Positions 32,818 through 61,427 of a stretch of 64,000 nt of DNA are shown in pieces. Source of the DNA: Blastocatellia bacterium (GTDB taxonomy: Bacteria; Acidobacteriota; Blastocatellia; UBA7656; JADIYM01). Position 1 is the stretch's first letter. Each line of letters starts with the position of its first letter. The notes under the pieces were generated by a model. It saw only the letters and a program-made list of their open reading frames with translations, searched no databases and was not told the DNA's origin. The position numbers were made by a program, and so were the translations under genes. The DNA is taken from contig JBGAKX010000005.1 in NCBI GenBank assembly GCA_044224215.1, positions 7,350-71,349 of the forward strand, in the 5' to 3' direction.

Positions 32818-32835
32818 CCGGCCACTTCAACCCGC

Positions 32836-35001: not shown

Positions 35002-35552
35002 CACATCCAGTCGTCGCCCTTTCACGTGCTTTCCAACGACCTCGTTCGGTGTGAGGCACGACGTCGTGCTTCGCGACGAGCGGAATGTGGGAATGGACCC
35101 TCGCCAGCGCTGCGCTGGCATCCCGGCACGCCGAATCCGACATGCACGGCACGAACTCTGTTGATCCGTCCCGCGCTTTCTTGTTCATGCCCCAATTCAC
35201 TCTGGATGAGTGCAACTTGCGTTCCGCGCATCGAGCCGACGTGAAAGCAATGCGACACACGCGTGGACTCCGGCGCGCCGTGGCGAAATGGGGCAGGCCT
35301 GTCCCAAAACTCCACGACTGCGCTGTCTCGTGGGTCCGGCCCTACGGTGCTGTTGGACGATCCGGCACGTGCTCCAAGGATCGTCCGAGACCAGATCAAC
35401 GTCCTGCAACTTTCGATCCGACTCGCGGATCGGAACGCAGGCGCCGCACGAATCGCCACGACTTGTCCGTCAATGCGCAGACATTCGGTCACGGATGGTA
35501 CGGGGGTTGCGTAAGTCAGGACGGATTTCCAATTCCATGCCGCGCCAGTCGA

Positions 35553-46028: not shown

Positions 46029-48503
46029 ATGCGCCACGCTCATTCGCGGCCAGTTCTCAGCACCCGCCTGCTCGTCGTCATAGGATTGGTGCTCGTTGGC
46101 GGTGGATTCGCGGTCGTCGGTCTCTCCCAGGGCCGAGGTCCCGCAGCCGCTGCGACCGGGCCGCAGAAGGGCCCCGGCACCGGGTTCCTTCACAAAGATC
46201 ATTCGGGAATGGTGGCAATTCCGGGCCAGGCGGGGAAGACCCGCGAGCTGAAATGCGAGACGTGCCACGCGGTCTCCGTGGAGGCTCCGGATACAAACCG
46301 CTTCCCGGGTCCGGATCTCGAGAAGTACCCCGAGACGGCGAAGCTGGCCGCCACCGGCACCAAGCTGAACGGTCTTGGATTTCCCAAGTCGCACTCTGCG
46401 TGCGTCGAGTGTCACAAGGAGATCGCTCCCGGTCCTGGCGGCAAGTACTGCGGCCTTTGTCATGACACGCTGCAGAAGCTGCGCGTATTCCCGAAGGCGA
46501 ACGTCCAGCTGTCGCAGTTCGCCGACCGCTACTCGCACAAGGCCCACAAGGACTACTACGACAACAATCCCGACACCTTCAAGACCGCCGCGGTTTCAAG
46601 GCCCGCTGCGTCGCACGGCATTTTCGGGTCCGCGACCACGTTCGGTACGGCGGACATCCTGCGTGTCTCGTACGTCGCGCCGCCGGCTGAAAAGGGGCTT
46701 CGGTGCTCGACGTGCCACATCCCGGCGACGGGCGGCGTGAAGATGCAGCTGCCGCTGCATGCGAACTGCTTTGAATGCCACGCGAACGAAAAGATTGTCT
46801 CCAAGAAGGCCGACACCTATGCGATGAACTGCGTCGGCTGCCACGCCAACATGGCCTTGAACGATCCGACGGTCGACGAGAAGCTCAAGCCGGTCAAGGA
46901 CGCACTGAACGCGATCGCTCCGGTCATCGATCCGTTCCGTGTCGTCATCACGCCGTCCGGCGCGGGACACGCGCAGTTCAACCACGTCGGCGGCGCCGCG
47001 AAGTACCACGAGGTCCTCAAACCGGATGCCGGCAAGAGCGCCGGGAAGACCATCGAAGGCAAGATGGCCTGCCTGTTCTGCCACACATCGGTGGAGAAGG
47101 CCGCAACGCGCGCCCAGGTCATGGCGTTCGCGGTCAAGAAGACCGATCCTCAGCTCGTCCAGCCGCCGGCGTCCGCATGCGTGGTGTGCCACGTCCACGC
47201 GGTGCAGATGGTCGTTCCCGACAAGCCGTCCAAGACGGGCCGCGCGGGATGCACGGTCTGTCATACGGCGGCCGATGCCGCCAAGCCGGCTCCCGCAACA
47301 CACAGTCTGGGCGAGGCAGCTCCTGCGGCGACGCCGGCAAAGCCCGAGGCGACGCCTCCCGCGGCAAAGCCCGAACCGGCCAAGCCCACAACCGCGCCGG
47401 CGGCGAAACCCGAGCCTGCAAAGCCGGCGGCTCCGAAGCCCGAGCCGACAAAACCTGCGACCGCGCCGGCCGCGAAGCCCGTGGAAACCCCGAAGGTTGA
47501 GACGCCCAAACCGGCCGCGACGCCTGCGCCGGCAAAGCCCGAGACGCCAAAGGTCGAGCCACCCAAGCCCGCACCGACAGAAGCTCCCAAGACGGCCCCG
47601 GCGCCCGAACCCAAGCCTGCAGAACCCGCGGCGCCCAAGCCTCAGGCTGCACCTGCAAGCGGCGGCACGGTCGACTACTCAAAGGGCTACCCGCCCACAG
47701 CGCCCGGCTCGTCGCACCTGAGCCTACCGAACCCGATGCTGCTTGGGGATCCCAAGACCAGCGACCAGTGGGGTCTTGACGGAACGTGGGGGATTTCGAA
47801 GCTCACACACCAGGATCACTCCGAGAAGTACAAGGTTTCGTGCGCCACGTGCCATCACACGAACGGTGCAGGTAACGCGGCGATCGGCGAGCAGGTGCAG
47901 CGTTGCGTGAGCTGCCACAAGGCCGAGGGCGACGAGAAGAACCCGTCCAGCAAGGACGGCGACGAACTCTGGGTGAAGAACGCATTCCACCTGGGTGAAA
48001 CCGGTTGCATCGAGTGTCACAAGCGCGAGTCGGCCAAGAACCCGAATTCGAAGGCTGCGACGACGTGCGCAGGATGCCACCAGCCGAAAGGCAGCGCTGA
48101 CGCGGACCGCGTGCTGAAGGGCCTGTTCCGCGACGCTACGACGGCCGTCGCGTTCAAGGTTCCCGGCTTTGCAGACACGTGGCCTCGCTGGCAGACGCGG
48201 CCTGCCGGATTCGGACTGCTCGGTGGCCAAAGCCTCGCAGGGTCGTTCGGCGGCGCGTCTGTTCGGGCGCTCGTTTGCGACGTTCCGGCGCGACTCTGGT
48301 ATGCACAGTTCGCCGGGTCCGGGTCGCATCGCTCGGCGCGTGTCGTTTCGCACGCGCGGTGGCAACGGCATGAACCCTCGCATGCCGCGCGTTCTCGATC
48401 GCCGCAGGTTCAACTCGCGCCCTCGTGGCGTGGCGAACTGCCCAGACTCGCACTGGCGATCGCGCTCGTGGACCGGAACGCCGGGCACGGCTACAGGATC
48501 TGA
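46029..48503 (+). CDS. Multiheme cytochrome c, 13 CxxCH motifs, with an internal Pro/Ala/Lys-rich linker and a C-terminal tetraheme module
   Basis: Signal peptide/TM helix (LLVVIGLVLVGGGFAVVGL). Thirteen CxxCH motifs were counted (CETCH, CVECH, CGLCH, CSTCH, CFECH, CVGCH, CLFCH, CVVCH, CTVCH, CATCH, CVSCH, CIECH, CAGCH). The start lies 11 nt after the upstream gene stop. The last ~135 codons are Arg-rich and atypical (see findings). Confidence 0.8.
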   Translation: MRHAHSRPVLSTRLLVVIGLVLVGGGFAVVGLSQGRGPAAAATGPQKGPGTGFLHKDHSGMVAIPGQAGKTRELKCETCHAVSVEAPDTNRFPGPDLEKYPETAKLAATGTKLNGLGFPKSHSACVECHKEIAPGPGGKYCGLCHDTLQKLRVFPKANVQLSQFADRYSHKAHKDYYDNNPDTFKTAAVSRPAASHGIFGSATTFGTADILRVSYVAPPAEKGLRCSTCHIPATGGVKMQLPLHANCFECHANEKIVSKKADTYAMNCVGCHANMALNDPTVDEKLKPVKDALNAIAPVIDPFRVVITPSGAGHAQFNHVGGAAKYHEVLKPDAGKSAGKTIEGKMACLFCHTSVEKAATRAQVMAFAVKKTDPQLVQPPASACVVCHVHAVQMVVPDKPSKTGRAGCTVCHTAADAAKPAPATHSLGEAAPAATPAKPEATPPAAKPEPAKPTTAPAAKPEPAKPAAPKPEPTKPATAPAAKPVETPKVETPKPAATPAPAKPETPKVEPPKPAPTEAPKTAPAPEPKPAEPAAPKPQAAPASGGTVDYSKGYPPTAPGSSHLSLPNPMLLGDPKTSDQWGLDGTWGISKLTHQDHSEKYKVSCATCHHTNGAGNAAIGEQVQRCVSCHKAEGDEKNPSSKDGDELWVKNAFHLGETGCIECHKRESAKNPNSKAATTCAGCHQPKGSADADRVLKGLFRDATTAVAFKVPGFADTWPRWQTRPAGFGLLGGQSLAGSFGGASVRALVCDVPARLWYAQFAGSGSHRSARVVSHARWQRHEPSHAARSRSPQVQLAPSWRGELPRLALAIALVDRNAGHGYRI
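47272..47660 (+). repeat. Low-complexity tandem AKPEP/TPKVE-type repeats (Pro/Ala/Lys/Glu-rich linker) inside the 13-heme cytochrome gene
   Basis: Visible degenerate nucleotide repeats (aagcccgagcc..., gcgccggc...) encoding AAKPEPAKPTTAPAAKPEPAKPAAPKPEPTKP... Confidence 0.6.
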
Positions 48504-48662
48504 TGGGCGGCGGCCTGCACCTGGCGTTCGCCTTGTTTTCATCGAGTCGCTTCGAATTGGATTGAATCTCACGCAGGCAACTGGTTCAGGACGTGCCGGC
48601 GTTCCGCAAGTCGCGAGGTTGGCGACGAGTCCGGAGAGCCGTGTCCTCGACACACTCAGACC

Positions 48663-49523
48663 ATGAAAAGAACGATCCCTCTTCTTGCCCTCGTCGCGGC
48701 ACTCTCGGTCACCGCGTGGCTTTCCGACCGGACGAGCGCCCAGGATACGGCGTACAACTATGGGTCGTTCGATCACAAGGAGCACGACGCCGCACTCGAC
48801 AAATCCGCGCAGGAGCGCATCGCGTGCGACGTCTGCCATCGGCGCGACGACGCGAGCTCGCAGCTCTACTTTCCGGGCCACAATGCGTGCATTCAGTGTC
48901 ACGCGACGCAGTTCACGTCCCAGTCGCTCCAGATCTGCGCCGTCTGCCACAAGGACGTCGCGACGCAGGGGCGCGCGCTGAAGGACTTTCCCGCGCAGCG
49001 CAAGGACTACGGCGTCAGGTTCGACGGCGCGGGCAACAAGAGCCAGCACGTCGTCCACATGAAGGAAGCGCTCCCGGACGGCACCAAGATGTCGTGCTCC
49101 TTCTGCCATGCGGCGCAGGGCTCGAATATGGCATTCCCCTCGCACCCCGAGTGCTACGCGTGCCACACGCCAGGTGCGAATTCGAAGGCGGCGTCGCAGG
49201 AATTGAGCACGTGCTCGGTCTGCCACCCCGGCGCTACCGAGCCCAACTCCGAGATGCGACGTCTTGTCAGCACCCGACGCAATGACGCGCTGCCCTACCG
49301 GTTCCGGCATCTCGACCATAACCGGTCCGGCCGGATCGGCAACGATTGCGCCAAGTGCCACAACGACGCGGCCGGAATTCACGTGGCGTCCACCGCAACG
49401 CGCGAGCATCGGGTCAAACCGGGGTTCAACTGCTACGAGTGCCACCGAGGCGGGGGTCTGTCGCGGATCACTGAGACATCGTGCGGAAGCTGTCACGGCG
49501 TCGTCGTGTTCCCGCCGCTGTAG
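48663..49523 (+). CDS. Multiheme cytochrome c, 9 CxxCH motifs, periplasmic
   Basis: Signal peptide MKRTIPLLALVAALSVTAWLS. Nine CxxCH motifs (CDVCH, CIQCH, CAVCH, CSFCH, CYACH, CSVCH, CAKCH, CYECH, CGSCH). Confidence 0.8.
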   Translation: MKRTIPLLALVAALSVTAWLSDRTSAQDTAYNYGSFDHKEHDAALDKSAQERIACDVCHRRDDASSQLYFPGHNACIQCHATQFTSQSLQICAVCHKDVATQGRALKDFPAQRKDYGVRFDGAGNKSQHVVHMKEALPDGTKMSCSFCHAAQGSNMAFPSHPECYACHTPGANSKAASQELSTCSVCHPGATEPNSEMRRLVSTRRNDALPYRFRHLDHNRSGRIGNDCAKCHNDAAGIHVASTATREHRVKPGFNCYECHRGGGLSRITETSCGSCHGVVVFPPL

Positions 49524-49754
49524 ATTCATCCGTCCTCGAGCGCGCCGCGACAATCCTGCAGGAACAGGGCGTTGACATAACAGGGTCACGCACTTAGGAT
49601 TGTTGTCCTGCCGTGCGTCGAGCACGTGCACTCGGGACCTTAGCGAGATCCGACGTTGAAGCACCCAGGGAAGGCCGGCCACGAATGCGCTTCGGCGCCC
49701 GGTGTGAGCCGCACCCGTTTCTTGGAACACATTGAAGCCGGAGACCACACTTTC

Positions 49755-50291
49755 ATGAGATATGCCAAGGCCGTTCTCTGCATCTGCGCGCTGGCAGTAT
49801 TTGGCGCGCTGTCATTCCACGTTGCGACCTCGTCCGCTGCCTCCGTTGATCCGACCCAGGCTGCGGTTGACTACTCGAAGGGCTACCCTGTGGAAGCTCC
49901 GGGTGCGTCGCACATGAGCCTTCCGAACCCCATGCTGCTCGGCGACCCCAAGACGAGCGACCAGTGGGGCCTCGATGACACGTGGGGAATCGCGAAATTC
50001 ACGCACCAGGACCACACCGAGAAATACAAGGTGTCGTGCCATACGTGCCACCATACAAACGGCAAGGACAATGCCGCCCTGACCGAGAACGTCGACCGTT
50101 GCGTGAAGTGCCACATGGCCGAGGGCAACGAGAAGAACCCGACGAACGCGGCCGGCGACGAACTCGACATCAAGAACGCATTTCACATCGGTGAGACGGG
50201 CTGTATCGAGTGCCACAAGCGCGAATCAGAGAAGAATCCGAACTCGAAGGCCGCCGCGACATGCGCCGGCTGCCACGAGAAGAAGGGCTAA
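49755..50291 (+). CDS. Tetraheme cytochrome c (cytochrome c3/c7-like), paralogous to the C-terminal module of the 13-heme protein
   Basis: Start ATG at 49755 (MRYAKAVLCICALAVFGALSFHVATSSAAS signal peptide). Four CxxCH motifs. About 80 % identical over ~140 aa to residues encoded at 47671-48097. Confidence 0.8.
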   Translation: MRYAKAVLCICALAVFGALSFHVATSSAASVDPTQAAVDYSKGYPVEAPGASHMSLPNPMLLGDPKTSDQWGLDDTWGIAKFTHQDHTEKYKVSCHTCHHTNGKDNAALTENVDRCVKCHMAEGNEKNPTNAAGDELDIKNAFHIGETGCIECHKRESEKNPNSKAAATCAGCHEKKG

Positions 50292-50298
50292 CGCCATC

Positions 50299-50328
50299 AC
50301 ACGGGCCGTCCCCCAGGACGGCCCGTGT
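50299..50328 (+). terminator. Perfect 13-bp stem / 4-nt loop hairpin immediately after the tetraheme cytochrome gene
   Basis: ACACGGGCCGTCC-ccca-GGACGGCCCGTGT, 8 nt after the TAA stop. Seen directly. Confidence 0.55.
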
Positions 50329-50373
50329 CTCATCCCAGGGCGCCCCCGCGGCAACTGTTTGAATCGAAGCACC

Positions 50374-51927
50374 ATGTCGACACCACAGAATCCGGAAGTC
50401 GGACTCCCAGCCGATAGCCTACCCACCCAGGCGAAACAGACCTCAGGCACAAACTTCCTCGATCGCGTGCTCAAGCAGCTCAGCTCGGTTCGGTTTGGCG
50501 TATCGCTGCTGATCCTGATGATCATCCTCAGTATGACCGGGATGCTGATCATGCAGATCAACGTCGAGGGATTTGACAAGTACTACGCGACGCTCACCCC
50601 GTCGCAGCAATGGCTCTACACGGATCCGATTCTGCGAGCGATCCGCAACGTGACCGGATGGCGGCTCCAGGGATGGAACATCCTGTCGCTCGTCGACATC
50701 TACAAGTCGTACGTATTCATCACGCTGCTCGCCATTCTGACGCTGAACGTCATCCTCGCGTCGATAGACCACTTTCCAGGTGCGTGGCGTTACATCACCC
50801 GAAAGAAGCTCACGGCCTCGAAGCCGTATGTGCTTCACCAGACCTACAACGCGACGGTCGAGAGCGACGGAAGCGACGCCGAGGCGGCGCAGATTGCCGC
50901 CCTCTGTCGTCACCTTGGCTACACGCCGACGATCACGCGCGAGGCGTCGCGCACGACGGTCTTTGCAGAGCGCGGAGCGTGGAACCGGCTCGGTGCGTAC
51001 TTTGTCCACGTCGGCCTTCTCGTCATCTTCACTGCGGGATTTCTGACGTGGCGGTCGTCGCACACCGGCAGCATGACGCTCACGCCCGGCGCCGAGGCGA
51101 CGACGATTCAGGGCTTGCTGTACGACCTGGACCGCGTTCAGGTCGGCGAGTTCGCGCTTCCCTTCACCGTCGAATGCACCGACATCCAGCAGACGCTGAT
51201 CCGTCCGGACGGGTCGCTGGACGCGAGCAACACGGTCGACTGGTTCACGCGCATACGCATCGCGGACCCCGCAACGGGCAAGAACCTCGATGCCGACGTG
51301 CACATGAACAAGCCCGTCGACTATCGCGGCTACCGTTTCTTCCAGTCCAGTTATCAGAACGTTGCAAAGGCCCGGACGGTGACGCTGCAGATCGACCGGC
51401 CGAACGCGCAGCCTGAACTGGTCGAGTTGCGGGTGAACCAGCCGACGACGCTGTCCGACGGCCGTACGATCGTCTTTGCCAACTTCACCGGCAACGAGAC
51501 CGACGCAAACAACGCGACCGACTATGACAAGCCCGCCGCCGCGCTGCAGGTCGTCGGCGGAGCCGGGGGGCCGCCGCAGTCGTTCGTCGTTCGCGCGGCC
51601 GGAGCGCCTGTTGATTCGACGGGCGTCACTGCGCTCGGCGGTGCGACGGCCACGCTTGTGAGCTTTGAAAAGGTCGGAGCGAGCCACACGCTCTCGGTTC
51701 AGTACGACCCTGGTGCATGGGTTTTTTACATCGGCTCCGTTATTCTTGTGGCCGCATTGATGTCCGTGTTCTTCGCCTCGCACCGTCGAATCTGGTTTGT
51801 GCTTGAGAAGGACAAGGACGGAGCGCACAAGATCTATGTCGGCGGGCATGCCAACCGAAACCGCCCGGCGTTTGAGCGGCAGTTCAAGGACTTGGTAGCG
51901 GCGCTCGCGCCTACCGCGCCAGCGTGA
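50374..51927 (+). CDS. Cytochrome c biogenesis protein ResB/Ccs1 (system II, CcsB)
   Basis: N-terminal TM helix, large periplasmic domain, and C-terminal TM helices with the conserved His. ResB-like collinearity. Start ATG at 50374. The ORF-track start at 50191 overlaps the terminator. Confidence 0.75.
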   Translation: MSTPQNPEVGLPADSLPTQAKQTSGTNFLDRVLKQLSSVRFGVSLLILMIILSMTGMLIMQINVEGFDKYYATLTPSQQWLYTDPILRAIRNVTGWRLQGWNILSLVDIYKSYVFITLLAILTLNVILASIDHFPGAWRYITRKKLTASKPYVLHQTYNATVESDGSDAEAAQIAALCRHLGYTPTITREASRTTVFAERGAWNRLGAYFVHVGLLVIFTAGFLTWRSSHTGSMTLTPGAEATTIQGLLYDLDRVQVGEFALPFTVECTDIQQTLIRPDGSLDASNTVDWFTRIRIADPATGKNLDADVHMNKPVDYRGYRFFQSSYQNVAKARTVTLQIDRPNAQPELVELRVNQPTTLSDGRTIVFANFTGNETDANNATDYDKPAAALQVVGGAGGPPQSFVVRAAGAPVDSTGVTALGGATATLVSFEKVGASHTLSVQYDPGAWVFYIGSVILVAALMSVFFASHRRIWFVLEKDKDGAHKIYVGGHANRNRPAFERQFKDLVAALAPTAPA

Positions 51928-51937
51928 GGGAGACCGT

Positions 51938-53503
51938 ATGAGCACTATCAGTCGGATCGACGTTCACAACCTGCCATCGGGCAGCGAGCCGCTCTCGGCG
52001 CGCTTGACCGGCTGGCTGCCCGTCGCGATTCCCATCGCGCTGGCGGCGACCATCGTCTTCCTCCGGGTGCAGTTCGGCGAAACTCGCTTCCTGTATGACG
52101 GGACGCTGATTGTCCTCGCGCTCGTGTGCTTCCTGTTTGCGTCGGTGATCGGTCTCATCGAGATGTACGCGGACAAGTCGGTCCTCGGTCGATGGGGCCT
52201 CCTGATGGCATCGAGCGGCCTCATGTTCAACGCGGCCGCGTGGGGCACGCGTTGGGTCGCGGCCGGCGATCGCGAGGGCTGGATTCGATGGGTCTTCCGA
52301 TACGTGCCGTTTGCGAACCTCTATGACCTGTCGATCGCGTTTTCGATGGGCGCTGCACTGACGACCGTCATCATCTGTCGCAAGAAGGAGTCGCGCGTCG
52401 TCATGGGCGTGTCGATGTTGATGGCGGCGCTGATCGTCACGCTGGCGATCTTCCTCGGGCGCCAGTTCATCGATCTGCCGCCAGTGCTCGACAGCTACTG
52501 GCGGCCGATCCACGTCGGGATCGCGTCGACGAGCTACGGCGTCGTGCTCGTCTGCTTCAGCATTGCGGTGCTCTACCTGATCAAGGACGGGTTCAAGATC
52601 GAGGGGATGGGAGCGTTCGTCGCTATCCTCGGTCTCGGCATCTTTGGCACGATCAACCGCTTCTCGCTGATCACGAGCGGAACGTACGGCCTCAATGTCT
52701 TTTTTGGCGCGGGCGACGAGCGATCGACACTTCCGCTTCGCGCGACGGTACCGGTCGTTGGCCCGCTCATGGTCCTGGCAATGCTGCTGCTCGTCGGCGC
52801 GCTCGCGTGCTTCGCCGCCGACCTCTATCGAGGGGACGAGCGGCTCAAGAAGTACGGGTTCTGGGCGATGTGGGGCTCGGCTGCGGCGCAGCTTGGGTCG
52901 ATCGTGACGCTCTTCTACCAGATGAAGGCGATCAACGGCACGATCGCCTCGCGGATCGACCTGGCGTCGCAGGCTGGCTATCCCAAGGTTGCTGAATGGC
53001 TTACGGCCAACGGCATCCCGTTGACGACTGCCGGAGTGCAGCAGGCGAACAAGGTCTTCGAGATGAACAACGCGCAGCTCAGCGTGTCCGGAAATTCGAA
53101 CCCGGTCGAACTCGGCGCGCTGTTCACCCTGCTCGCCCTCACGGGGCTGGTTCTGATGTTCGGCTTCCGCACCGAGCGCGTCATCGAACGGCTGCCGTCG
53201 CTCGAGCGGCTCGACGAGCTCATGTACAAGACCGGCGCCGTTGCGTTTACCGGTCTCGCGATGCTGCTCATCACGGGAGCCGTCTGGGCGAACGAGTCGT
53301 GGGGACGGTACTGGGGCTGGGATTCCAAGGAGACGGGCGCGCTCGTGGCGTGGCTCGCGTACGCGGGCTTCCTGCACACGCGCATCGCTCACGGCTGGAG
53401 CGGACGACGCAGCGCGTACTTTGCCATCGTCGGATTCCTGCTCGTCATCTTCACGTATCTCGGCGTCAGCTACCTGCTGCCGGGCCTTCACTCCTACGCA
53501 TGA
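51938..53503 (+). CDS. ccsA: Cytochrome c-type biogenesis protein CcsA/ResC (heme exporter/lyase with WWD domain)
   Basis: Tryptophan-rich WWD motif (WGRYWGWDSKETGALVAWLAYA), flanking conserved His residues, and polytopic membrane topology. Confidence 0.85.
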   Translation: MSTISRIDVHNLPSGSEPLSARLTGWLPVAIPIALAATIVFLRVQFGETRFLYDGTLIVLALVCFLFASVIGLIEMYADKSVLGRWGLLMASSGLMFNAAAWGTRWVAAGDREGWIRWVFRYVPFANLYDLSIAFSMGAALTTVIICRKKESRVVMGVSMLMAALIVTLAIFLGRQFIDLPPVLDSYWRPIHVGIASTSYGVVLVCFSIAVLYLIKDGFKIEGMGAFVAILGLGIFGTINRFSLITSGTYGLNVFFGAGDERSTLPLRATVPVVGPLMVLAMLLLVGALACFAADLYRGDERLKKYGFWAMWGSAAAQLGSIVTLFYQMKAINGTIASRIDLASQAGYPKVAEWLTANGIPLTTAGVQQANKVFEMNNAQLSVSGNSNPVELGALFTLLALTGLVLMFGFRTERVIERLPSLERLDELMYKTGAVAFTGLAMLLITGAVWANESWGRYWGWDSKETGALVAWLAYAGFLHTRIAHGWSGRRSAYFAIVGFLLVIFTYLGVSYLLPGLHSYA

Positions 53504-53519
53504 CATTCCGTTGAGTCTC

Positions 53520-53550
53520 GGCGCGGTGTTCAACCCGTGAACGCCGCGCC
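53520..53550 (+). terminator. 13-bp stem (one G·U) / 5-nt loop hairpin after ccsA
   Basis: GGCGCGGTGTTCA-acccg-TGAACGCCGCGCC, seen directly. It overlaps the ORF-track start of the next gene, which argues for the downstream start at 53585. Confidence 0.5.
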
Positions 53551-53584
53551 GGGACTTCACCATCGTTTCCACGCCCACCTGATC

Positions 53585-54475
53585 ATGAGCGACACGACCA
53601 ACACGAACGCAAACATCGAGCTGATGAAGGCCAAGCTCGAAGCCCACAAGAAGGACAAGCTGCTGCATCTGCTGAGCGGGCTCTTCGTTGGCCTGCTGGT
53701 CGGATTCTTCGGAGCCAACTGGATGAACGCGCGGCCGGCGGCGATCGGACCCGCCGCCGGACAGGCAGCCGTGGGCGGTGCAGACCTTCCGGCCGATCAT
53801 CCCGCCGTCGAGGGCGGAGGCGCGGGAGCAGGAGCGGGCGCGGCGATGCCTGAGGTGCAGGCCAAGCTGAAGGCGGCGGACGACAACCCCCAGGACTTCG
53901 ACGCGCAGATGGAAGCCGCGGCGATGTTTTTCCGGATCAACAACTTTGCCAAGTCGGTCGAGTATCTTGAACGTGCGAGCAAGCTGAAGCCGAATGATCC
54001 GGACACGCTCGCAAACCTCGCGAGGGTCCAGTTGCGCAGCGGGGACATGGAGCAGGCAATTGCAAACGCCCGCAAAGCGTACGACCTGAAGCCCGACGAC
54101 TTTGACAACACCGTGCTGCTGGCCAATCTGCTGTTCGACACCGAGAAGTTCGTGGACGCGCAGCCGCTCTACGAAAAGGCGCTCGTCATGAAGCCCGACG
54201 ACGTCGACGTCCGCACGGATCTCGGCACGAGCTACTTCAAGGCGGGCAATCCCGACAAGGCCATCGCCACCTACCGCGAATCGCTCAAGCGCGACCCCAA
54301 GCACCAGAATACACTCGTCAACATCGCGCATGTCGCCATTGCAAAAGGTGACTCTGCGGTCGCCGAGGACGCGCTGACCAAGCTCGCGGCGGTCAATCCG
54401 CAGAACGCCGAACTCGCCAGCTTGCGGACGCAGCTCGACGAGCTCAAGAAGACTGGAAAGATTCCGACACACTAG
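53585..54475 (+). CDS. Membrane-anchored TPR-repeat protein
   Basis: TM helix (LLHLLSGLFVGLLVGFFGANW), Gly/Ala-rich spacer, then several TPR units (AKSVEYLERASKLKPNDPDTLANLARV...). Confidence 0.6.
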   Translation: MSDTTNTNANIELMKAKLEAHKKDKLLHLLSGLFVGLLVGFFGANWMNARPAAIGPAAGQAAVGGADLPADHPAVEGGGAGAGAGAAMPEVQAKLKAADDNPQDFDAQMEAAAMFFRINNFAKSVEYLERASKLKPNDPDTLANLARVQLRSGDMEQAIANARKAYDLKPDDFDNTVLLANLLFDTEKFVDAQPLYEKALVMKPDDVDVRTDLGTSYFKAGNPDKAIATYRESLKRDPKHQNTLVNIAHVAIAKGDSAVAEDALTKLAAVNPQNAELASLRTQLDELKKTGKIPTH

Positions 54476-54570
54476 GTCCGTGCGTCGCGTTGCCCGCCGG
54501 CGCTAACCGGCACCAACGAAACGCTCAAAGACCAGCCCCGCGGCTGCTTCGTCGTTGCATATCGGTCCGG

Positions 54571-54603
54571 TTGGTGATATCTGTGGCACCAACACACTGG
54601 TGC
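54571..54603. promoter_or_regulatory. Composite palindrome built from three TGGTG/CACCA hexamers (TTGGTG-N10-CACCAA overlapping GCACCA-N6-TGGTGC) about 110 nt upstream of the cNMP-binding gene
   Basis: Seen directly. A candidate dimeric transcription-factor operator. Confidence 0.35.
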
Positions 54604-54708
54604 TCATAGTTTGTTTCCGGAGGACACCGGCTTTCGCCGATTCCTCCTTGCTTTTCCCCACACATTCCCAGGTCTCAACCCCCTGCGGGGCCGGACTCGG
54701 GAGGAACC

Positions 54709-57174
54709 ATGCCACAAGAGATCCAGAAGCGTCGGGATGTGCTCGCGGCCATCAAGAGTGTGGCCGCCATTGCAGACATCACCGCTGAGCATGCCGGGCA
54801 TTTCGAGCACGAGATCGACCTCGAAGTCATCGTCTACGGCCGCAACTACAACGGCAAGAAGGTCGGTCCGTACGTGCGCCTCCTCGTCTACCAGAACGGC
54901 GAGGACGTCATGCGCGAGGGCGAGTGGGGCGGGAACACGTTCTACGTCGTGGTCGAGGGCAAGGCCGACGTGCTGATCGACAGCGCGAACGGCATCGTCA
55001 AGGTCGCCGAGATATCGCAGGGCGACATCCTCGGCGAGATGTCGATCCTTGCGGGTGTGCCGCGATCCGCGACCGTTCGTGCACCGCAGGGCGGCGCCGT
55101 GAAGGTGCTCGAGGTTCAGCGTCCGGCGCTCCGGTTGCTGCGCAAGCTGCCGCATTTTGGTGAGTCGCTCGACCGGTCGTATCGCCATCACGGCAGAAAC
55201 CAGATTCTCCAGGTACTCGGGTCCGTGGAGCACCTGTCGACGGACGCGATCAAGGCGCTTGAGGGCATCTCGCAGTTCCGCGTGTACGGCAAGGGGCACG
55301 TCCTGTTCCGTGCGGGCGAGCAGATTCGTCGTGTCTACCTTCTCAAGACCGGCTGGCTGCGAATGTCGCAACAGGCTAAGACCTCGCTGCTCGCGGCGGT
55401 GCCCGGGTATGGCAACGTGAAATCGCTGTCGTGGGACACCCCGTCGCCGGACAGCTACTTTGGTCCGTCACACGCGTTCGGCCTGGAGGGCGTCCAGCAG
55501 GATGCAACGTGGCGCCACTCGGGCGTGCTGCTCGGACGCACCGAGATGCTCGAGGTGTCGGTGTCGGAGCTCCGAAAGAACCCGCAGCTCGTTGCGCTCC
55601 TTGGGCACGCGCTGCAGACCCTCGAGATCAAGGACGCGCAGGCCGACAAGGGTCCGCCGGCCCCGGTCGCCGAGGCGCAACGCGAACTGATCGCGAACGG
55701 GCTCGTCGACGGGACGAACCTGTTGCTGATGGACATGGAGCTGTGCGTCCGGTGCGGCAACTGCTCGCTTGCCTGCAATCACCAGCACGGCAACTCGAGA
55801 CTGCTGCGACGGGGCATTTCGATCACGCGCCCCGAGACGCTCAAGAAGAACTCGCATACGCAGCACCTCATGAATCCGTCGGTCTGCATGCACTGCATGG
55901 ACCCCGAGTGCATGACGGGCTGTCCGACGGGAGCGATCGGTCGCTTCCCCGGCGGCTATGTCGACATCGATCCGAAGACGTGCATCGGGTGCGGCGACTG
56001 CGCGACGCAGTGCCCGTACGACGCCATCTCGCTGATCGCGCGACGGCCAAAGCCTGGTGAGAAATCGAATGCGCTTGTCGAGATGTTCAGCCTGGCGCCT
56101 GCGCCGATACCCGAGTCGGTCGAAACGACCGAGGACCTCGTTGCGGTCAAGTGCAACCTTTGCAGCAATACGCCGCTGAACCCGCCGGGCGCGAAGTCGC
56201 GCAAGTACAGCTGCGAAGAGAACTGTCCAACTGGTGCGCTTCTGCGTGTGAGCCCGCGTGTCTACTTTGACGAGATCGCCAACATCGAGGGCGTCATCTT
56301 CAAGGACGATACGCACATCGTTTCCAAACACACGTCGCACCGCGATCCCAAGAAGCGACTCATTCACCTGCTCGGCATCGTGCTCACGCTGGCGCTTGCC
56401 GCGGTGAGCGTGGCGGCGCTTTACAGAATCGGCCGCGACAATCCGCTCCTTGGATCGTGGTTCAACTTCTACTGGTTCACCGGGATTGTTGGTCTTCTCG
56501 CGATCACGTGGGTGATGTTGTACCCGATCCGCCGACAGATCTTCCGCAAACGCGTCATTCCGTTGCGCTACTGGATGCTGTCGCATGCCTACATGGGCGT
56601 GATCGCGGGCGTGCTCCTTCTCATGCACGCCGGGACGCGCGGTGGCGGCCTGCTGACCACGTCGCTGATGATCACGTTCGACCTGGTCATCCTGACGGGG
56701 TTGTGGGGCATCGCCACGTACTACGTCGTGCCGAGAGTGCTCACAAAGATCGAGGAGCAACCGCTCCTCGTCGACGACCTCATCCTCAGACGGCAGGAAC
56801 TGACTGAGGAGATCGCGGACACGGTCGCCCGCGCGTCGCAGCCGACGCGTGATGCGATCGAGAAGGGCGTCATTCCGCACTTCCTGACGTTTGGCTATCT
56901 GCTGGGACAGTATTTCTCGGCAAAGCCGCTCGCGGTGAATACTGCAGAAGCCCGCAAGCATTTTGAGCAGACGGCGATGACGCTTCCTCCCAACGAGCGC
57001 GATTCGTTCTTTGGCGCTGTCGAGCGCGCGGCGACGCTGCGTCGGGTCGACGCGCTCATCCTGCTGCACCGGTCGCTCAAGGCGTGGCTCGCACCGCACG
57101 TCCTGACGACGTCGCTCATGCTCGCCCTGATGATCGTGCACATCATTCAGGTCATCTATTTCGCCGTGAAATGA
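54709..57174 (+). CDS. Cyclic-nucleotide-binding (2x cNMP) domain protein fused to a four-cluster [4Fe-4S] ferredoxin module and a C-terminal His-containing polytopic membrane domain
   Basis: cNMP-binding signature GEMSIL...RSATVRA and a second degenerate CAP-like domain. Cysteine motifs: CVRCGNCSLAC, CMHCMDPECMTGCP, CIGCGDCATQCP, and CNLCSN...C-x3-CP (the NrfC/PsrB-like tetra-cluster pattern). At least 5 C-terminal TM helices. Confidence 0.7.
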   Translation: MPQEIQKRRDVLAAIKSVAAIADITAEHAGHFEHEIDLEVIVYGRNYNGKKVGPYVRLLVYQNGEDVMREGEWGGNTFYVVVEGKADVLIDSANGIVKVAEISQGDILGEMSILAGVPRSATVRAPQGGAVKVLEVQRPALRLLRKLPHFGESLDRSYRHHGRNQILQVLGSVEHLSTDAIKALEGISQFRVYGKGHVLFRAGEQIRRVYLLKTGWLRMSQQAKTSLLAAVPGYGNVKSLSWDTPSPDSYFGPSHAFGLEGVQQDATWRHSGVLLGRTEMLEVSVSELRKNPQLVALLGHALQTLEIKDAQADKGPPAPVAEAQRELIANGLVDGTNLLLMDMELCVRCGNCSLACNHQHGNSRLLRRGISITRPETLKKNSHTQHLMNPSVCMHCMDPECMTGCPTGAIGRFPGGYVDIDPKTCIGCGDCATQCPYDAISLIARRPKPGEKSNALVEMFSLAPAPIPESVETTEDLVAVKCNLCSNTPLNPPGAKSRKYSCEENCPTGALLRVSPRVYFDEIANIEGVIFKDDTHIVSKHTSHRDPKKRLIHLLGIVLTLALAAVSVAALYRIGRDNPLLGSWFNFYWFTGIVGLLAITWVMLYPIRRQIFRKRVIPLRYWMLSHAYMGVIAGVLLLMHAGTRGGGLLTTSLMITFDLVILTGLWGIATYYVVPRVLTKIEEQPLLVDDLILRRQELTEEIADTVARASQPTRDAIEKGVIPHFLTFGYLLGQYFSAKPLAVNTAEARKHFEQTAMTLPPNERDSFFGAVERAATLRRVDALILLHRSLKAWLAPHVLTTSLMLALMIVHIIQVIYFAVK

Positions 57175-57176
57175 GG

Positions 57177-57199
57177 GCAAGGGCCCGCCCGGCCCTTGC
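57177..57199 (+). terminator. 9-bp perfect hairpin (GCAAGGGCC-cgccc-GGCCCTTGC) followed by TTCCTC, 3 nt after the stop
   Basis: Seen directly. Confidence 0.5.
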
Positions 57200-57231
57200 T
57201 TCCTCGAGGCGCTCGAACCGCAACCTACGCC

Positions 57232-58701
57232 ATGGCAACGAGCAAATTCACTATCATTCGCAAGGACCTCCAGACGGACCCGTCTGTTGTCGACAGTGAC
57301 GGCCTCACGATCGGGCGCCTTGTCAGCAACGACCTGCCGCTCAACCACCCCGAGGTTTCGCGCACGCACGCGGGTATCAAGGAGGTCGGTGGCGACTACT
57401 GGATATTCAACCTCTCGAATGCCAACGGGACCATCCTCAACGGTGCGCCGGTAGACAGCGCACCGCTGGCGGCTGGCGACGTCATTCAGCTCGGGCCATT
57501 CACGTTGCTTGTTTCGTTCACCGATCGCGTGCTGACGCTCACGGTCGAGGTGAGCGTCAACCCGATGCGCGTCGAGAATGCCGGCGCAGCGGGTGCGACG
57601 GTCGATCAGGCCGGCAAGACGATGATGCTCAACCCGGCCATGTTGGCTGCCCAGCAGCAGAAGGCAGCGCCGGGCGGCACTCAGCGACTGGCAATGACAG
57701 GCAAGCTCACCGGCATGCTCGCCAAGCCGGAAGAGCTCGCGCTGAAGGTCTTCTGGGAGAAGCGCCAGCGCGACGAAGGCAAGATGGCCGAGCGCACGGA
57801 CCTGAAGCCGAACCTTCAAAAGGGCCGTGTCGGCAAGATCCGCTTCAACTGGAGATCGTCGTCCGACCTGCGCAGGCCGTGGCCCGTCGGGCTGTTTCTG
57901 TGGGGTACGATCCTTGTCGCGGTGGGCGCGATCGCAGCGACGTTTCTCTACAAGCAGGCGTACACGAAGGGGCCGCTCGCCGACGTGCATACGCGCACCG
58001 CGCTCGCTCAGGCAGAGCCGGCTCTCGCGATCGCAAAGACCGCAAACGCCAACTCGTGCACGACGTGCCACTCGCTCACAAAGTCGATGGCCGGCCAGTG
58101 TGCCGAGTGCCACACGACGCCCGGGTTCAAGTCTACCGTTTCGCACGAACACGAGATGGCCGGCGTCACGTGCTCCGAGTGCCATGGACAGGACCATCGC
58201 GGCAACGCATTCAGGCTCGCGGCGGCCGAGACGTCTTGCGACACGTGTCACAGGCAGGGCTACGTCTTCAAGAGCGTTGCCCAGGGGAAGGACATCGTCC
58301 TGCAGACGCCGCACGGCGGCGCGAACATCGGCTACCCCGTGACCAACGGCCAGTGGACGTGGGCCGGCTGGCCTGAAGAGAAATGGAAGAAGCGCGGATT
58401 GCCGAAGACCGCGGCGGCCTTTGACATCAAGGGCCAGTTCCACGTCATCCACGTCGACAACGGAAAGCCGCTGGAGCAGGTTCAGTGCTCGGACTGCCAC
58501 ACCAAGGGCTTCGAGCCTGCAAACATCACGAAGGGCGTCCGCGAGTCGTGCGCGTCGTGCCACGGCGACACTGTGGCCCAGGCGGGCGCGTCGCCGTCGA
58601 GGGGCGCGCAGTGCACGTCCTGCCACCAGCAGCATACCGAGGGCAAGGACCCGTACGCGCTTGTGCGCGCGCGCGAGGTCAACGCGGCTCGAACAAAATG
58701 A
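57232..58701 (+). CDS. FHA-domain protein fused via one TM helix to a periplasmic heptaheme cytochrome c
   Basis: N-terminal FHA fold (TIGRLVSNDLPLNHPEVSRTHAGI...GDYWIFNLSNANGTILNG, i.e. the GR...S.H...N.NGT pattern). TM helix PVGLFLWGTILVAVGAIAATFLY. Seven CxxCH motifs (CTTCH, CAECH, CSECH, CDTCH, CSDCH, CASCH, CTSCH). Confidence 0.75.
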   Translation: MATSKFTIIRKDLQTDPSVVDSDGLTIGRLVSNDLPLNHPEVSRTHAGIKEVGGDYWIFNLSNANGTILNGAPVDSAPLAAGDVIQLGPFTLLVSFTDRVLTLTVEVSVNPMRVENAGAAGATVDQAGKTMMLNPAMLAAQQQKAAPGGTQRLAMTGKLTGMLAKPEELALKVFWEKRQRDEGKMAERTDLKPNLQKGRVGKIRFNWRSSSDLRRPWPVGLFLWGTILVAVGAIAATFLYKQAYTKGPLADVHTRTALAQAEPALAIAKTANANSCTTCHSLTKSMAGQCAECHTTPGFKSTVSHEHEMAGVTCSECHGQDHRGNAFRLAAAETSCDTCHRQGYVFKSVAQGKDIVLQTPHGGANIGYPVTNGQWTWAGWPEEKWKKRGLPKTAAAFDIKGQFHVIHVDNGKPLEQVQCSDCHTKGFEPANITKGVRESCASCHGDTVAQAGASPSRGAQCTSCHQQHTEGKDPYALVRAREVNAARTK

Positions 58702-58758
58702 TCGGCGCTCATGGACTCCCCGTCCGGCGCAATGTGATGGACCGGTGAAACGTACATC

Positions 58759-60435
58759 ATGAAGAAGTCGCAACTCATCATTACCATCCTGATGCTCGTC
58801 ATTCTGGTCGCGGCTGCATTTGGCACGCGTTACCTGAATGTGAATCTCGGCGCCGTGCCCTGGTACGGCTGGACGGCACTCGCGATCGTGCTGATCGTCA
58901 TCGGAGTGATCGGCCTGATACTCGAGACGTCACGCGACCGGCGGGACCTGAAGGCTGCCACGATCGAGGCGGAACGCGAAGCCGCCGAACGGCTCGAGGC
59001 ATCCAAGCACCCTGACCTTGCGGTAAACGTCGCCGCATTGGACCCCGGTGGACCCGCGTATCCGCACCCTGTCATCAACTCGGCCACGTGCATCGGCTGT
59101 CATGCGTGCGTGGACGCTTGCCCGCATGACGTGCTCGCAATCGTGAACGGCATCTCCACTCCGATCGCGCTCGATCAGTGCATGGAGGACACCGGGTGCC
59201 AGGTTGAATGCCCGACCAGCCCCAAGTCCTGCATCGTGGTCAACACAAAGAAGAAGATTCCGGAGCGGAAGGTTCCAAAGCGCGACAACCGATTCATGAC
59301 CAATGTTCCCGGCATCTACCTGATCGGCGACGTATCGGGAGTTCCACTCATCAAGAACGCGATCAACGAGGGCGGCGCGGTCATCGAGCACATCGCCGAG
59401 GACCTTCAGAAGAAGGGCGGCAACGGCCAGGCGGAATACGATGTCGCGATCGTCGGCGTCGGACCCGGCGGTCTTTCGGCCGCGGCGCTCGCAAAGCAGA
59501 AGGGTCTGCGCTACGTAGCGCTCGAACAGGACAAGGTCGTCGCCACGATTCAGGCCTACCCGGCCGGCAAGTACGTGTTCTTCAAGCCCGACACGGTCGA
59601 GACGGACGGCGGCATCGAGCTACCCGGCGCCGGTCTTCCAAAGGAGCAGATGATCGGCTCGTGGCTTGACACGATCAAGAACAACTCGCTCAAGATCAAC
59701 GAGTACGAGACGTGCAAGAGCGTCAAGAACGAGAACGGCCTCTTCGTGGTCCGCACCGATTCGGAGAAGACCAAGCAGAGCGCCGAGTACAGGTCACAGA
59801 CGGTCATCATCGCCGTGGGTGGCCGCGGCACGCCGATGCGCCTCAAGGTGCCAGGCGAAGAGATCAAGCTGCAGGTGACGCCGAGCGCTCCGGTTATGTC
59901 GTCCTTCTGCGTCAAGTGCGGCCAGCCGCGCGAGGGCGCGGCGACCGTCTGTCCGAAGTGCAACGCTGCGTATCCGTCTCGCATTCCGCCGCCGTTCGAG
60001 GACGAGAAGGTGAAGTATCGCCTCAGCGATCCGAATCTTTTCTCGGGCAAGCACTGCATCGTCGTTGGCGCCGGCAACTCGGCGATCGAGTGCGCGGTGG
60101 ATCTCGCGTCGTATCGCTCGGAAGACGGCACGCAGATCATCGGATGGCGCGACAACGTCGTCACGCTCGTCATCCGGAGCGACTTCAAGGGCGACCTGAA
60201 GCTCGGCAACAAGATGCTGTGCTATGAGTGCATGGACGAGGGGAAGATCACGACCCACTTCCGAAAGGCATTCAAGGAGATCACGCCGACCGAGGTCGTG
60301 CTCATGAGCGCGCGCGAGCGCGACCCGGCCACGGCAAAGGAGACCGACCGAATCCGCAACGACTACATCTTTGCGCTGATCGGCGGCGACAAGCCGACCA
60401 AGTTCCTCGAGAGCATGGGAATCCAGATCGGCTAG
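58759..60435 (+). CDS. Membrane-anchored 2x[4Fe-4S] ferredoxin domain fused to an FAD/NAD(P)-binding (thioredoxin-reductase-like) oxidoreductase with an inserted zinc ribbon
   Basis: Two N-terminal TM helices. Ferredoxin motifs [12 protein letters not shown] and C-x5-C-x3-CP. Two Rossmann GxGxxG motifs ([25 protein letters not shown]). Zinc ribbon CVKCG...CPKCN. Confidence 0.7.
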
Positions 60436-60506
60436 CCAACGACGGACCGACCCGTGACGAGGCGCCATCGTGCGCCTCGTCGTCTTTCCGATGGTTTGGG
60501 GGGAGC

Positions 60507-61373
60507 ATGAACGAAGATCTGCTGAGCTTGATGCCAACAACCGAGATGACGCGACGGCGCTTTGTCGTCACGTCGCTTGCGGCCGGATTTGCGCTTGCGG
60601 TGCAGCCCGTATCCGCGCAGACCGTGATCACGACCGATTCACAAGGTCTCGAGGCCGGCGAAGTCCAGATCCCGGTTTCAGACGGGAAGATGCCTGCCTA
60701 CCGCGCGATGCCGCTCAAGGGAAAGAATTTCCCGGTGGTGCTCGTCGTTCAGGAGATCTTCGGCGTCCACGAGCACATTCGGGACGTGTGCCGGCGTTTC
60801 GCAAAGCTTGGACACATGGCGATCGCGCCGGAGCTTTACGCGCGACAGGGCGATGTATCAAAGATGACCGACATCCAGGAGATCATCACAAACGTCGTCT
60901 CAAAGGTGCCGGATTCGCAGGTGATGTCCGATCTCGACGCCACCGCGGCATGGGCCGGCGCATCCGGCAAGGCCGACGTGAAGAAGCTCGGCATCACCGG
61001 CTTCTGCTGGGGGGGCCGCATCGTGTGGCTCTATGCTGCCCACAACCCCAAGCTCAAGGCCGGAGTCGCCTGGTACGGCCGTCTCGTCGGTCAGCCATCG
61101 GAACTCCAGCCAAAGTATCCGATCGATCTCGTCAAGGAACTGAAGGCACCCGTGCTTGGCCTCTACGGCGCAAGCGACCAGGGAATCCCCGTCGATACGG
61201 TCGAGAAGATGCAGGCGGCCTTGAAGTCGGCCGGCAGCAAGTCCGAGATCGTGCTCTACCCCGACACGCCTCACGGTTTCAACGCCGACTACCGCCCGTC
61301 ATACCGCAAGGAACAGGCGCAGGACGGTTGGAAACGGCTGAACGCCTGGTTCGCCAGGTACGGCGCGGCGTAG
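60507..61373 (+). CDS. Dienelactone hydrolase family protein with twin-arginine (Tat) signal peptide
   Basis: Tat motif [28 protein letters not shown] nucleophile motif GFCWGG. Conserved D and H (YPDTPHGF). Confidence 0.8.
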
Positions 61374-61380
61374 GACGTAC

Positions 61381-61420
61381 TTGCCGCAGATTTGCGCGAA
61401 TTTGCGCAAATCTGCGGCAA
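61381..61420. terminator. Perfect 17-bp inverted repeat (TTGCCGCAGATTTGCGC-gaattt-GCGCAAATCTGCGGCAA): bidirectional terminator between convergent genes
   Basis: Seen directly. It lies between the stop of the DLH gene (61373, + strand) and the stop of the tricorn protease gene (61428, - strand). Confidence 0.65.
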
Positions 61421-61427
61421 AGAACGG

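Follow-up and report, generated by a model that had tools for sequence, protein, structure and literature searches.

A forkhead-associated domain joined to a heptaheme cytochrome c in Blastocatellia, and a conserved three-gene module that may connect NAD(P)H with periplasmic multihaem cytochromes

Why should a periplasmic multihaem cytochrome carry, at its cytoplasmic end, a domain of the kind that reads phosphothreonine? The question is raised by a gene at 57232..58701 (+) of a 64,000-nucleotide stretch of a Blastocatellia bacterium genome (contig JBGAKX010000005.1, positions 7,350 to 71,349), the whole of which is called the window here. A first-pass annotation of the letters described the product as a forkhead-associated (FHA) domain linked through a single transmembrane (TM) helix to a periplasmic domain with seven CxxCH motifs, and both the architecture and the topology are borne out by Pfam profiles, an AlphaFold2 (AF2) model, hydropathy and the motif count. 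The gene is genuine and conserved, its product is an inner-membrane protein, and it stands in the middle of a unit of three genes. The explanation advanced below, to which we give about an even chance, is that the three proteins form a complex that passes electrons between NAD(P)H in the cytoplasm and multihaem cytochromes in the periplasm, with the FHA domain as a phospho-switch or docking element and cyclic-nucleotide-binding (cNMP) domains as a second input.

The open reading frame (ORF) is uninterrupted, without stop or frameshift, and gives 489 residues from an ATG start, with the Pfam FHA and cytochrome c3/c7 families recognized in it. An in-frame TTG lies upstream at 57196; because all orthologues begin at the equivalent of M-A-T-S-K-F, the ATG at 57232 is taken as the start. 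A search of public genomes for homologous fusions, which had been proposed as a check, was productive: at least 271 homologues were returned by protein search, those listed being full-length, 45-99% identical and furnished with the same FHA and cytochrome domains, and a genome scan with one genome per species gave 176 matching stretches that encode a relative, 80 of which were fetched as loci. The homologues come mostly from metagenome-assembled genomes of Acidobacteriota/Blastocatellia and are named merely "FHA domain-containing protein". Conservation of the FHA-heptaheme protein is given below over 82 orthologues of 38-99% identity and synteny over 85 related loci, with smaller denominators (74, 55 and 84) for the adjacency counts.

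The FHA domain takes up residues 1-107 (57232..57552, +) and is recognized by Pfam, by conservation, by the AF2 model and by alignment to GarA. The profile scan that had been called for leaves little room for argument: PF00498 matches residues 26-88 with E=3.3e-14 and 53.5 bits (gathering score 20.7), and the N-terminal 223 residues alone score 55.1 bits. The AF2 model has a beta-sandwich over residues 1-107 at a predicted local distance difference test score (pLDDT) of 75-83. The domain aligns gap-free to GarA (E=2e-11) through the motifs G-R, S-R-x-H and N-G-T, represented here by G28-R29, S43-R44-T45-H46 and N65-G66, and the nearest FHA domains are those of GarA/OdhI and Rv1747. The phosphothreonine pocket singled out by the first-pass annotation is conserved at its Arg, Ser and Asn positions (80-82 of 82) and somewhat less at its His: R29 and S43 are found in 82/82 orthologues, R44 and N65 in 81/82 and H46 in 75/82, and G28, T45 and G66 are likewise invariant or nearly so.

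Two further cytoplasmic segments separate the FHA domain from the membrane. The first, residues 108-164 (57553..57723, +), is a variable linker that in the alignment of the 82 orthologues keeps four conserved Txx[L/I/V/M/F] motifs, with threonines at T130 (77/82), T150 (72/82), T156 (79/82) and T160 (58/82) and a hydrophobic residue at +3 in each. The usual FHA ligand pattern is Thr-x-x-Leu/Ile, and the four threonines are candidate phosphothreonine sites that an FHA domain of the same or of another subunit might bind. The second, residues 165-215 (57724..57876, +), is a basic juxtamembrane segment that is invariant among the orthologues (A170 L171 F174 W175 R178 R180 G183 K184 ... G201 W207 D212 L213), begins with an AF2 helix at 165-181, and is kept even in fusions that lack haems, as described below. 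Outside the domains no segment is better conserved in the family than this one, which is encoded by the DNA around 57800.

The single TM helix, residues 216-241 (57877..57954, +), is placed by hydropathy, by an AF2 helix at 217-243 and by its basic cytoplasmic flank, and is oriented N-in/C-out. An N-terminal signal peptide is absent from the protein and the segment preceding the helix is strongly basic, which together put the FHA end in the cytoplasm and the haem end in the periplasm; the presence upstream of genes for ResB and CcsA/CcsB agrees with a periplasmic location of the haems. The periplasmic domain, residues 242-489 (57955..58698, +), holds seven CxxCH motifs between residues 276 and 465 that use all 14 Cys of the protein, whereas 20,000 composition-preserving shuffles average 0.0145 motifs and never exceed 2. 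The seven motifs and seven additional histidines (H253, H307, H322, H361, H404, H407 and H468) are near-invariant in the orthologues, and from this 7+7 count the domain is predicted to hold seven bis-His haems. Three Pfam families score above threshold: Cytochrom_c3_2 (42.5 bits), Cytochrome_C7 (39.5 bits) and Paired_CXXCH_1 (25.7 bits). Directly outside the membrane there is an invariant periplasmic juxtamembrane motif, Y244-x-P246-G247-x-L249...H253-x-R255.

What the cytochrome works with is indicated by its neighbors, from which it is separated by a 57-bp gap on either side. Upstream lies a gene for a protein with cNMP domains, iron-sulfur (FeS) clusters and five TM helices (cNMP-FeS-5TM), and downstream one for a reductase with ferredoxin and flavin adenine dinucleotide (FAD) domains (Fd-FAD). 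A homologue of the upstream gene is found upstream on the same strand in 83/85 loci, the remaining two being without upstream sequence; by strict adjacency the upstream gene is next to the FHA gene in 66/74 loci and the Fd-FAD gene follows it in 53/55, and in locus L003 the upstream gene and the FHA gene overlap by 4 bp. To this synteny a profile search adds fusions; among 1.84 billion cluster representatives it matched 112 at E <= 1e-30. At least nine representatives (P0244, P0246, P0248, P0250, P0252, P0253, P0262, P0267 and P0274) encode FHA-TM-heptaheme-TM-Fd-FAD as a single chain, joined at a "PWYxW" helix that corresponds to the second helix of the window's reductase; in P0344 the heptaheme domain is fused to the 5-TM domain; four others (P0272, P0278, P0289 and P0312) are haem-less and run FHA, TM, short loop, TM, ferredoxin, FAD; and further representatives have two to five FHA domains ahead of a seven- or six-haem unit. 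The recurring fusions and the synteny mark the FHA-juxtamembrane unit, the heptaheme domain, the reductase and the 5-TM domain as recurring partners, and the case for a functional link of the three proteins is strong. The Fd-FAD reductase and the cNMP-FeS protein had both been put forward as candidate partners in the first-pass annotation, and this guess fared well, as both adjoin the gene in nearly all loci and are fused to the heptaheme unit elsewhere.

The downstream partner (58759..60435, +; Pfam/NCBIfam and conservation) is a 558-residue protein with two N-terminal TM helices, a 2x[4Fe-4S] ferredoxin with eight Cys, and a YpdA/TrxR-like FAD/NAD(P)H flavoprotein into which a Cys4 zinc ribbon is inserted. 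Some other features of the loci may be recorded here. A gene for a 379-residue AAA+ ATPase (AAA_2 + ClpB D2-small) lies between the FHA-cytochrome and Fd-FAD genes in 15/55 loci (Blastocatellia; e.g. L003:11588-12727) and is not in the window; it may be a remodelling factor recruited by the FHA domain. In locus L086 (11545-16219) two Ser/Thr kinase genes (Pkinase + FGE-sulfatase domain) are directly downstream of a fused FHA-heptaheme-Fd-FAD gene. Some genomes have two copies of the module (L049 + L082, both on contig CAZJQQ010000008.1; L065 + L073; L062 + L070). Pyrinomonadaceae and Chloracidobacterium relatives are among the carriers of the module. Loci L006, L007, L021, L028, L034, L039 and others show Acidobacteriota-type synteny in bins labelled "uncultured Clostridia", "Heliomicrobium" or "Heliobacteriaceae", and these labels probably name the wrong taxon.

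The upstream partner (54709..57174, +; Pfam/NCBIfam, conservation and synteny) has 821 residues, with two cNMP-binding domains, a four-[4Fe-4S] ferredoxin and a C-terminal 5-TM domain. The cyclic-nucleotide-binding profile PF00027 scores 73.7 bits against a cutoff of 27.5, and the first cNMP domain keeps the phosphate-binding cassette G109-E110...R119-x-A121-T122 (G109 in 74/74 orthologues, E110 in 73/74, R119 in 72/74 and A121 in 73/74). The ferredoxin is of NrfC/DsrO type (DsrO model 69.5 bits, cutoff 200), and its 16 invariant Cys suffice for four [4Fe-4S] clusters. Loop charges put the FeS domains in the cytoplasm. A twin-arginine (Tat) signal was considered at the N-terminal K-R-R-D-V-L and rejected, as the twin Arg is unconserved (H or R at position 8) and the loop charges again point to the cytoplasm.

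The 5-TM domain of this protein, residues 547-821 (about 56296/56347..57171, +; AF2, hydropathy and conservation), is modelled at pLDDT 80-97. Its invariant histidines are H553, H787 and two H-x13-H pairs, H626/H640 on TM3 and H797/H811 on TM5; the pairs lie at matching depths on the AF2 helices, are invariant in 73-74 of 74 orthologues, and most likely hold two stacked b-haems spanning the bilayer. Known families give little help with this domain. The cytochrome b561 profile PF01292 is sub-threshold in 3/18 of the orthologues (best 28.1 vs 30.1 bits, E=2e-6) and does not match the window sequence; the ferric reductase domain PF01794 matches neither the window's domain nor the orthologues scanned; a profile search of Protein Data Bank sequences gave nothing meaningful, and a structure search matched no solved relative. 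Homologue searches with the single sequence and with a profile returned close, mostly fragmentary Acidobacteriota relatives and did not reach the Gallionellaceae and ptd proteins discussed below. The His-rich 5-TM domain, seen in the window and in P0121-P0456, has no Pfam family, and public annotation often splits it off as a "hypothetical protein" fragment; by its sequence it is a family of its own.

From these parts we infer complex formation, the b-haems, the path and direction of the electrons, and the phosphorylation, in the following scheme. The membrane-anchored ferredoxin-FAD flavoprotein would take electrons from NAD(P)H, or donate them to it, and its two clusters would exchange them with the four [4Fe-4S] clusters of the cNMP protein and so with its 5-TM domain, where two b-haems on the four invariant membrane His would carry them across the bilayer; on the periplasmic side the heptaheme domain would collect the electrons and deliver them to the neighboring 4-, 9- and 13-haem cytochromes. 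Outward flow, for export or disposal to extracytoplasmic acceptors, is most likely, because by bioenergetic principles inward flow to NAD(P)+ would have to climb in redox potential as well as work against the membrane potential. The FHA domain would be the cytoplasmic docking or regulatory handle of the cytochrome subunit and probably a phospho-switch, acting in cis as in GarA/OdhI (or in the manner of Rv1747) or between subunits, a role suggested by the complete phosphothreonine pocket and the four adjacent conserved TxxL sites in the window's clade; a further regulatory input would come from the cNMP domains. The same scheme can be stated more boldly, as a self-contained, quinone-independent exporter that runs from NAD(P)H to FAD, six [4Fe-4S] clusters, two b-haems in an unrecognised 5-TM fold and seven c-haems, and that is switched by Ser/Thr phosphorylation, with the FHA domain reading its own TxxL linker, and by cyclic nucleotides; in this full form it is speculative and we would put it forward tentatively. 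If true, the exporter would be a bacterial counterpart of the regulated NADPH oxidases that feeds multihaem cytochromes rather than oxygen, and it would be widespread in soil Acidobacteria with fused forms in other phyla.

Several observations weigh against the proposed electron-transfer complex and its phospho-regulation. Over the haem domain the AF2 model falls to pLDDT <50 and is unreliable; it is usable only for the FHA domain, the juxtamembrane helix and the TM helix. The grounds for the b-haems are only the histidine pattern and weak profile matches, and hhalign comparison of the 5-TM alignment to E. coli proteins gave no significant relative (FdnI E=0.068, CybB 0.12, NarI 0.56, and MsrQ). 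In L086, which has the fused FHA-heptaheme-Fd-FAD gene, there is no 5-TM gene nearby, and the 5-TM protein may there be dispensable or encoded elsewhere. As to phosphorylation, no gene for a Ser/Thr kinase, a phosphatase or a second FHA protein is found in the 64-kb window, and 22/38 distant representatives of the family are without the canonical FHA pocket while keeping the FHA fold and the juxtamembrane motif, which means that phospho-reading is not a universal property of FHA-multiheme fusions. A TGxL linker motif accompanies the canonical pocket in 7/16 representatives and its absence in 3/22 (Fisher p=0.06, with sequences that are not independent), an association across distant relatives that is suggestive only. 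Phospho-reading may be a trait of the window's clade, with docking perhaps the original task of the FHA fold.

The alternative that survives best, which we consider unlikely, couples the system to quinones: the heptaheme protein would be a quinol:cytochrome oxidoreductase like CymA, NapC or ImcH, the Fd-FAD and FeS-5TM proteins would make up an NAD(P)H:quinone reductase of the type II NADH dehydrogenase (NDH-2) or succinate-dehydrogenase type, and the FHA and cNMP domains would regulate. One TM helix followed by haems does resemble NrfH and CymA, the authors of a preprint on a Ferrigenium relative argue likewise (bioRxiv 10.64898/2026.01.22.701106), the invariant Y244...R255 motif is placed where a quinol site would be, and the L086 fusion, having no nearby 5-TM gene, needs another membrane carrier. 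However, neither NapC/NirT (PF03264) nor any other quinol-dehydrogenase family in Pfam or NCBIfam matches at E <= 0.01, no quinone-site motif was identified, and a 5-TM protein with two H-x13-H pairs that is adjacent almost universally, together with the heptaheme-5-TM fusion P0344, favors a direct haem path.

A second alternative, rather improbable in our estimate, would make the FHA domain a structural, phosphorylation-independent scaffold, as in YscD of type III secretion, GltG of gliding motility and EssC of type VII secretion; the fold would merely keep the cytoplasmic parts of the complex together, among them the AAA+ ATPase of some loci. The degenerate pockets of the 22/38 distant representatives fit such a role, as do sub-threshold matches of the FHA-heptaheme protein to the Pfam/NCBIfam models Yop-YscD_cpl, TagH and GltG, the ATPase gene that directly follows the FHA-cytochrome gene in 15/55 loci, and the lack of a kinase in the window. 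GarA itself binds its enzyme targets through the phosphothreonine pocket without phosphate. Against a scaffold stand the near-invariance of R29, S43, R44 and N65 down to 38% identity, the four TxxL motifs that adjoin the domain, and the one fusion locus (L086) with two Ser/Thr kinase genes alongside; purely structural FHA folds such as that of YscD are not known to keep the pocket residues.

A third alternative, that of a redox sensor without any conduit, in which periplasmic haems would sense the extracytoplasmic redox state and the FHA output would recruit phosphoproteins, has precedent in that haem-containing periplasmic sensor domains exist in other bacteria, and the FHA and cNMP domains are signalling modules. 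It is nonetheless very unlikely: bulk electron transfer is what one would expect of seven bis-His haems in a row that are strictly linked to an NAD(P)H flavoprotein and a six-cluster FeS chain and have maturation genes and a further 26 haem sites beside them, and in the variants P0272, P0278, P0289 and P0312 the FHA module is fused straight to the reductase with no haems at all. The last, that separate FHA and cytochrome genes were joined by a sequencing frameshift, is refuted to the point of being negligible, with nothing found in its favor, by the single uninterrupted ORF, by an equal architecture and length in the 271 or more homologues and relatives in 176 species-level stretches, and by the finding that the DNA near 57800, where according to the first-pass annotation a fusion artefact would show as a stop or shift, encodes the highly conserved juxtamembrane motif.

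The complex of cytochrome, FeS-5TM protein and reductase favored here has partial counterparts in several described systems. The first-pass annotation knew of no described FHA-cytochrome c fusion, which is right only in part: two prior mentions exist, neither of which gives a function. In a table of the Gallionellaceae pangenome, a cytochrome with 10 CxxCH appears as "Forkhead-associated protein" for 27 genomes (PMC10734462, 2023), and in Ferrigenium straubiae a protein called "NHC" is described as cytosolic FHA, one TM and nonaheme, with a [4Fe-4S] protein and a motif-less five-TM protein as neighbors; the authors of this 2026 preprint are aware of no previous report and assign no function (bioRxiv 10.64898/2026.01.22.701106). 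Compared by description, NHC and the window's protein share a cytosolic FHA domain, one TM helix, a periplasmic multihaem domain and the lack of a signal peptide, and the five-TM and [4Fe-4S] neighbors of NHC each have their counterpart in one half of the fused gene at 54709-57174 of the window. The differences are that the NHC-type and Gallionellaceae proteins have nine or ten haems and belong to Betaproteobacterial Fe(II) oxidisers, whereas the window's has seven and belongs to Acidobacteriota; that FeS and 5-TM proteins are separate genes near NHC, whereas here they are fused, and to cNMP domains; and that no Fd-FAD partner or fusions are reported for NHC.

A second counterpart by parts is the ptdABCDEFG cluster of marine Alphaproteobacteria and others, which comprises an FAD/NAD(P) oxidoreductase (PtdC), a cNMP+4Fe-4S protein (PtdE), a ferric-reductase-like TM protein (PtdF) and multihaem cytochromes, and whose function is stated to be "completely unknown" (bioRxiv 10.1101/2023.11.21.568154). 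The likeness is by parts list only, the oxidoreductase, the cNMP-4Fe-4S protein, a TM protein and multihaems all being present in the window. The ptd cluster has a porin and penta-, tetra- and deca-haem proteins with no FHA reported, whereas no porin was found in the window's cluster, where the haem numbers are 13, 9, 4 and 7; the window's cNMP-FeS protein is fused to the TM domain and has four clusters, compared to two in ptd; and its TM domain is not recognisably ferric-reductase-like.

Other systems resemble the module in logic more than in components. In TmcABCD, HmcABCDEF and DsrMKJOP of sulfate reducers, electrons cross the inner membrane by way of a periplasmic multihaem cytochrome c, a b-type subunit in the membrane and an FeS protein in the cytoplasm, and the operating logic would be the same here. 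However, HdrD-like CCG, NarI-like and NrfD-like matches are missing from Pfam/NCBIfam scans (and hhalign to NarI gives E=0.56), the FeS domain is NrfC/DsrO-like yet cytoplasmic, and those systems have neither a flavoprotein as NAD(P)H entry nor FHA or cNMP domains. The di-haem ferric reductase domain and NADPH oxidases (NOX) have His pairs 13 apart on the third and fifth TM helices. With NOX and MsrQ the module shares NAD(P)H-FAD input, two H-x13-H pairs on TM3 and TM5, and cytoplasmic signalling domains; unlike them it has five rather than six TM helices, no PF01794 match, no significant hhalign match to MsrQ and no structural match, and it would place FeS clusters between flavin and membrane and a c-type haem chain as acceptor.

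For the regulatory part the models are GarA/OdhI and Rv1747, whose FHA domains bind, in cis or in trans, phosphorylated Thr motifs that lie elsewhere in the protein. They include the closest solved FHA domains by sequence and share the G-R / S-R-x-H / N-G-T pocket, and their Thr motifs are a parallel to the four TxxL motifs here; but GarA and OdhI are soluble regulators of tricarboxylic acid cycle and glutamate enzymes and Rv1747 is an ATP-binding cassette transporter, none of them with haems or in a redox complex. ImcH has seven haems, and a membrane helix followed by a periplasmic multihaem domain is found in it as in NapC, NirT, CymA and NrfH; the window's protein differs from all of these in having no NapC/NirT profile match, in the 215-residue cytoplasmic FHA region before its helix, and in its linkage to FeS and flavin genes. 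We place the module among the inner-membrane cytochrome-c/FeS/flavin electron-transfer modules, from which it stands out by its FHA and cNMP regulatory domains and by a 5-TM subunit of no known class.

The surroundings of the module are rich in haem proteins. Three multiheme cytochrome c genes with 13, 9 and 4 CxxCH (46029..50291, +; Pfam and CxxCH counts) precede it, homologues of these flank the module in 26/84 loci, and they are its likely electron partners in the periplasm or beyond. The first of them (46029-48503) encodes 824 residues with 13 CxxCH, an N-terminal hydrophobic anchor and a match to MtrC/MtrF domain II/IV, and no outer-membrane porin gene was recognised near it in the window. 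The 4-haem c3-like ORF at 49656-50291 is 79% identical over 141 residues to residues 548-688 of the 13-haem ORF (47670-48092), and it looks as if a tetraheme module was duplicated recently within the cluster. Directly upstream of the module are the System II maturation genes for ResB, CcsA/CcsB and a CcmH/CycH-like tetratricopeptide-repeat protein (50191..54475, +; Pfam/NCBIfam), of which ResB and CcsA/CcsB lie 3.7-7 kb upstream of the FHA-heptaheme gene on the same strand; the maturation gene order is the same in L004, L008 and L009, and the start of ResB is uncertain as the listed ORF overlaps the preceding gene. Nothing above shuffled expectation came out of a scan of 53400-61500 for promoters and terminators. 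A G+C-rich inverted repeat, GGGCAAGGGCC...GGCCCTTGC, at 57175-57205 is situated right after the cNMP-FeS-5TM stop in the 57-bp gap and was not called by the terminator scan.

Other genes of the window may be noted in passing. Just upstream of the cytochrome cluster, 44150-46018 encodes a 622-residue protein with bacterial immunoglobulin/cadherin-like domains and a C-terminal HbpS-like (haem-binding/degrading) domain. After the module, in the window and in its closest relatives, comes a dienelactone hydrolase ORF (60228-61373), whose likely start at an internal Met before a twin-arginine-like T-R-R-R-F-V-V suggests a periplasmic enzyme. A 696-residue protein with a di-haem cytochrome c peroxidase/MauG domain and 2 CxxCH is encoded at 22350-24440 (+), and adjoining it at 24547-27673 (-) are a sigma-54 response regulator and a HAMP histidine kinase. 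At 30400-35121 (-) a sucrose synthase gene adjoins a sucrose-phosphate synthase/phosphatase fusion gene, which gives this presumed Acidobacterium a sucrose pathway.

Acidobacteriota rank with the most abundant bacteria of soils, and how flexibly they respire is poorly understood; the module described here is conserved and widespread in this major soil phylum, uncharacterised, and represented by fused variants elsewhere. Two unexplained systems, the Ferrigenium "NHC" and the ptd cluster, are tied by description to a common parts list. The 5-TM domain, with neither a Pfam family nor a solved relative, is a candidate for a new haem-b membrane fold. Bacterial electron-transfer chains have hardly been explored for post-translational control through Ser/Thr phosphorylation or cyclic nucleotides, and in this module an FHA domain and two cNMP domains sit on redox subunits, with residues that can be tested: R29, S43, T130/T150/T156/T160 and the four TM His. 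If the link between NAD(P)H and the multihaem cytochromes is true, it would give these bacteria an extracytoplasmic electron route to metals, humics or partners, or a means of redox balancing.

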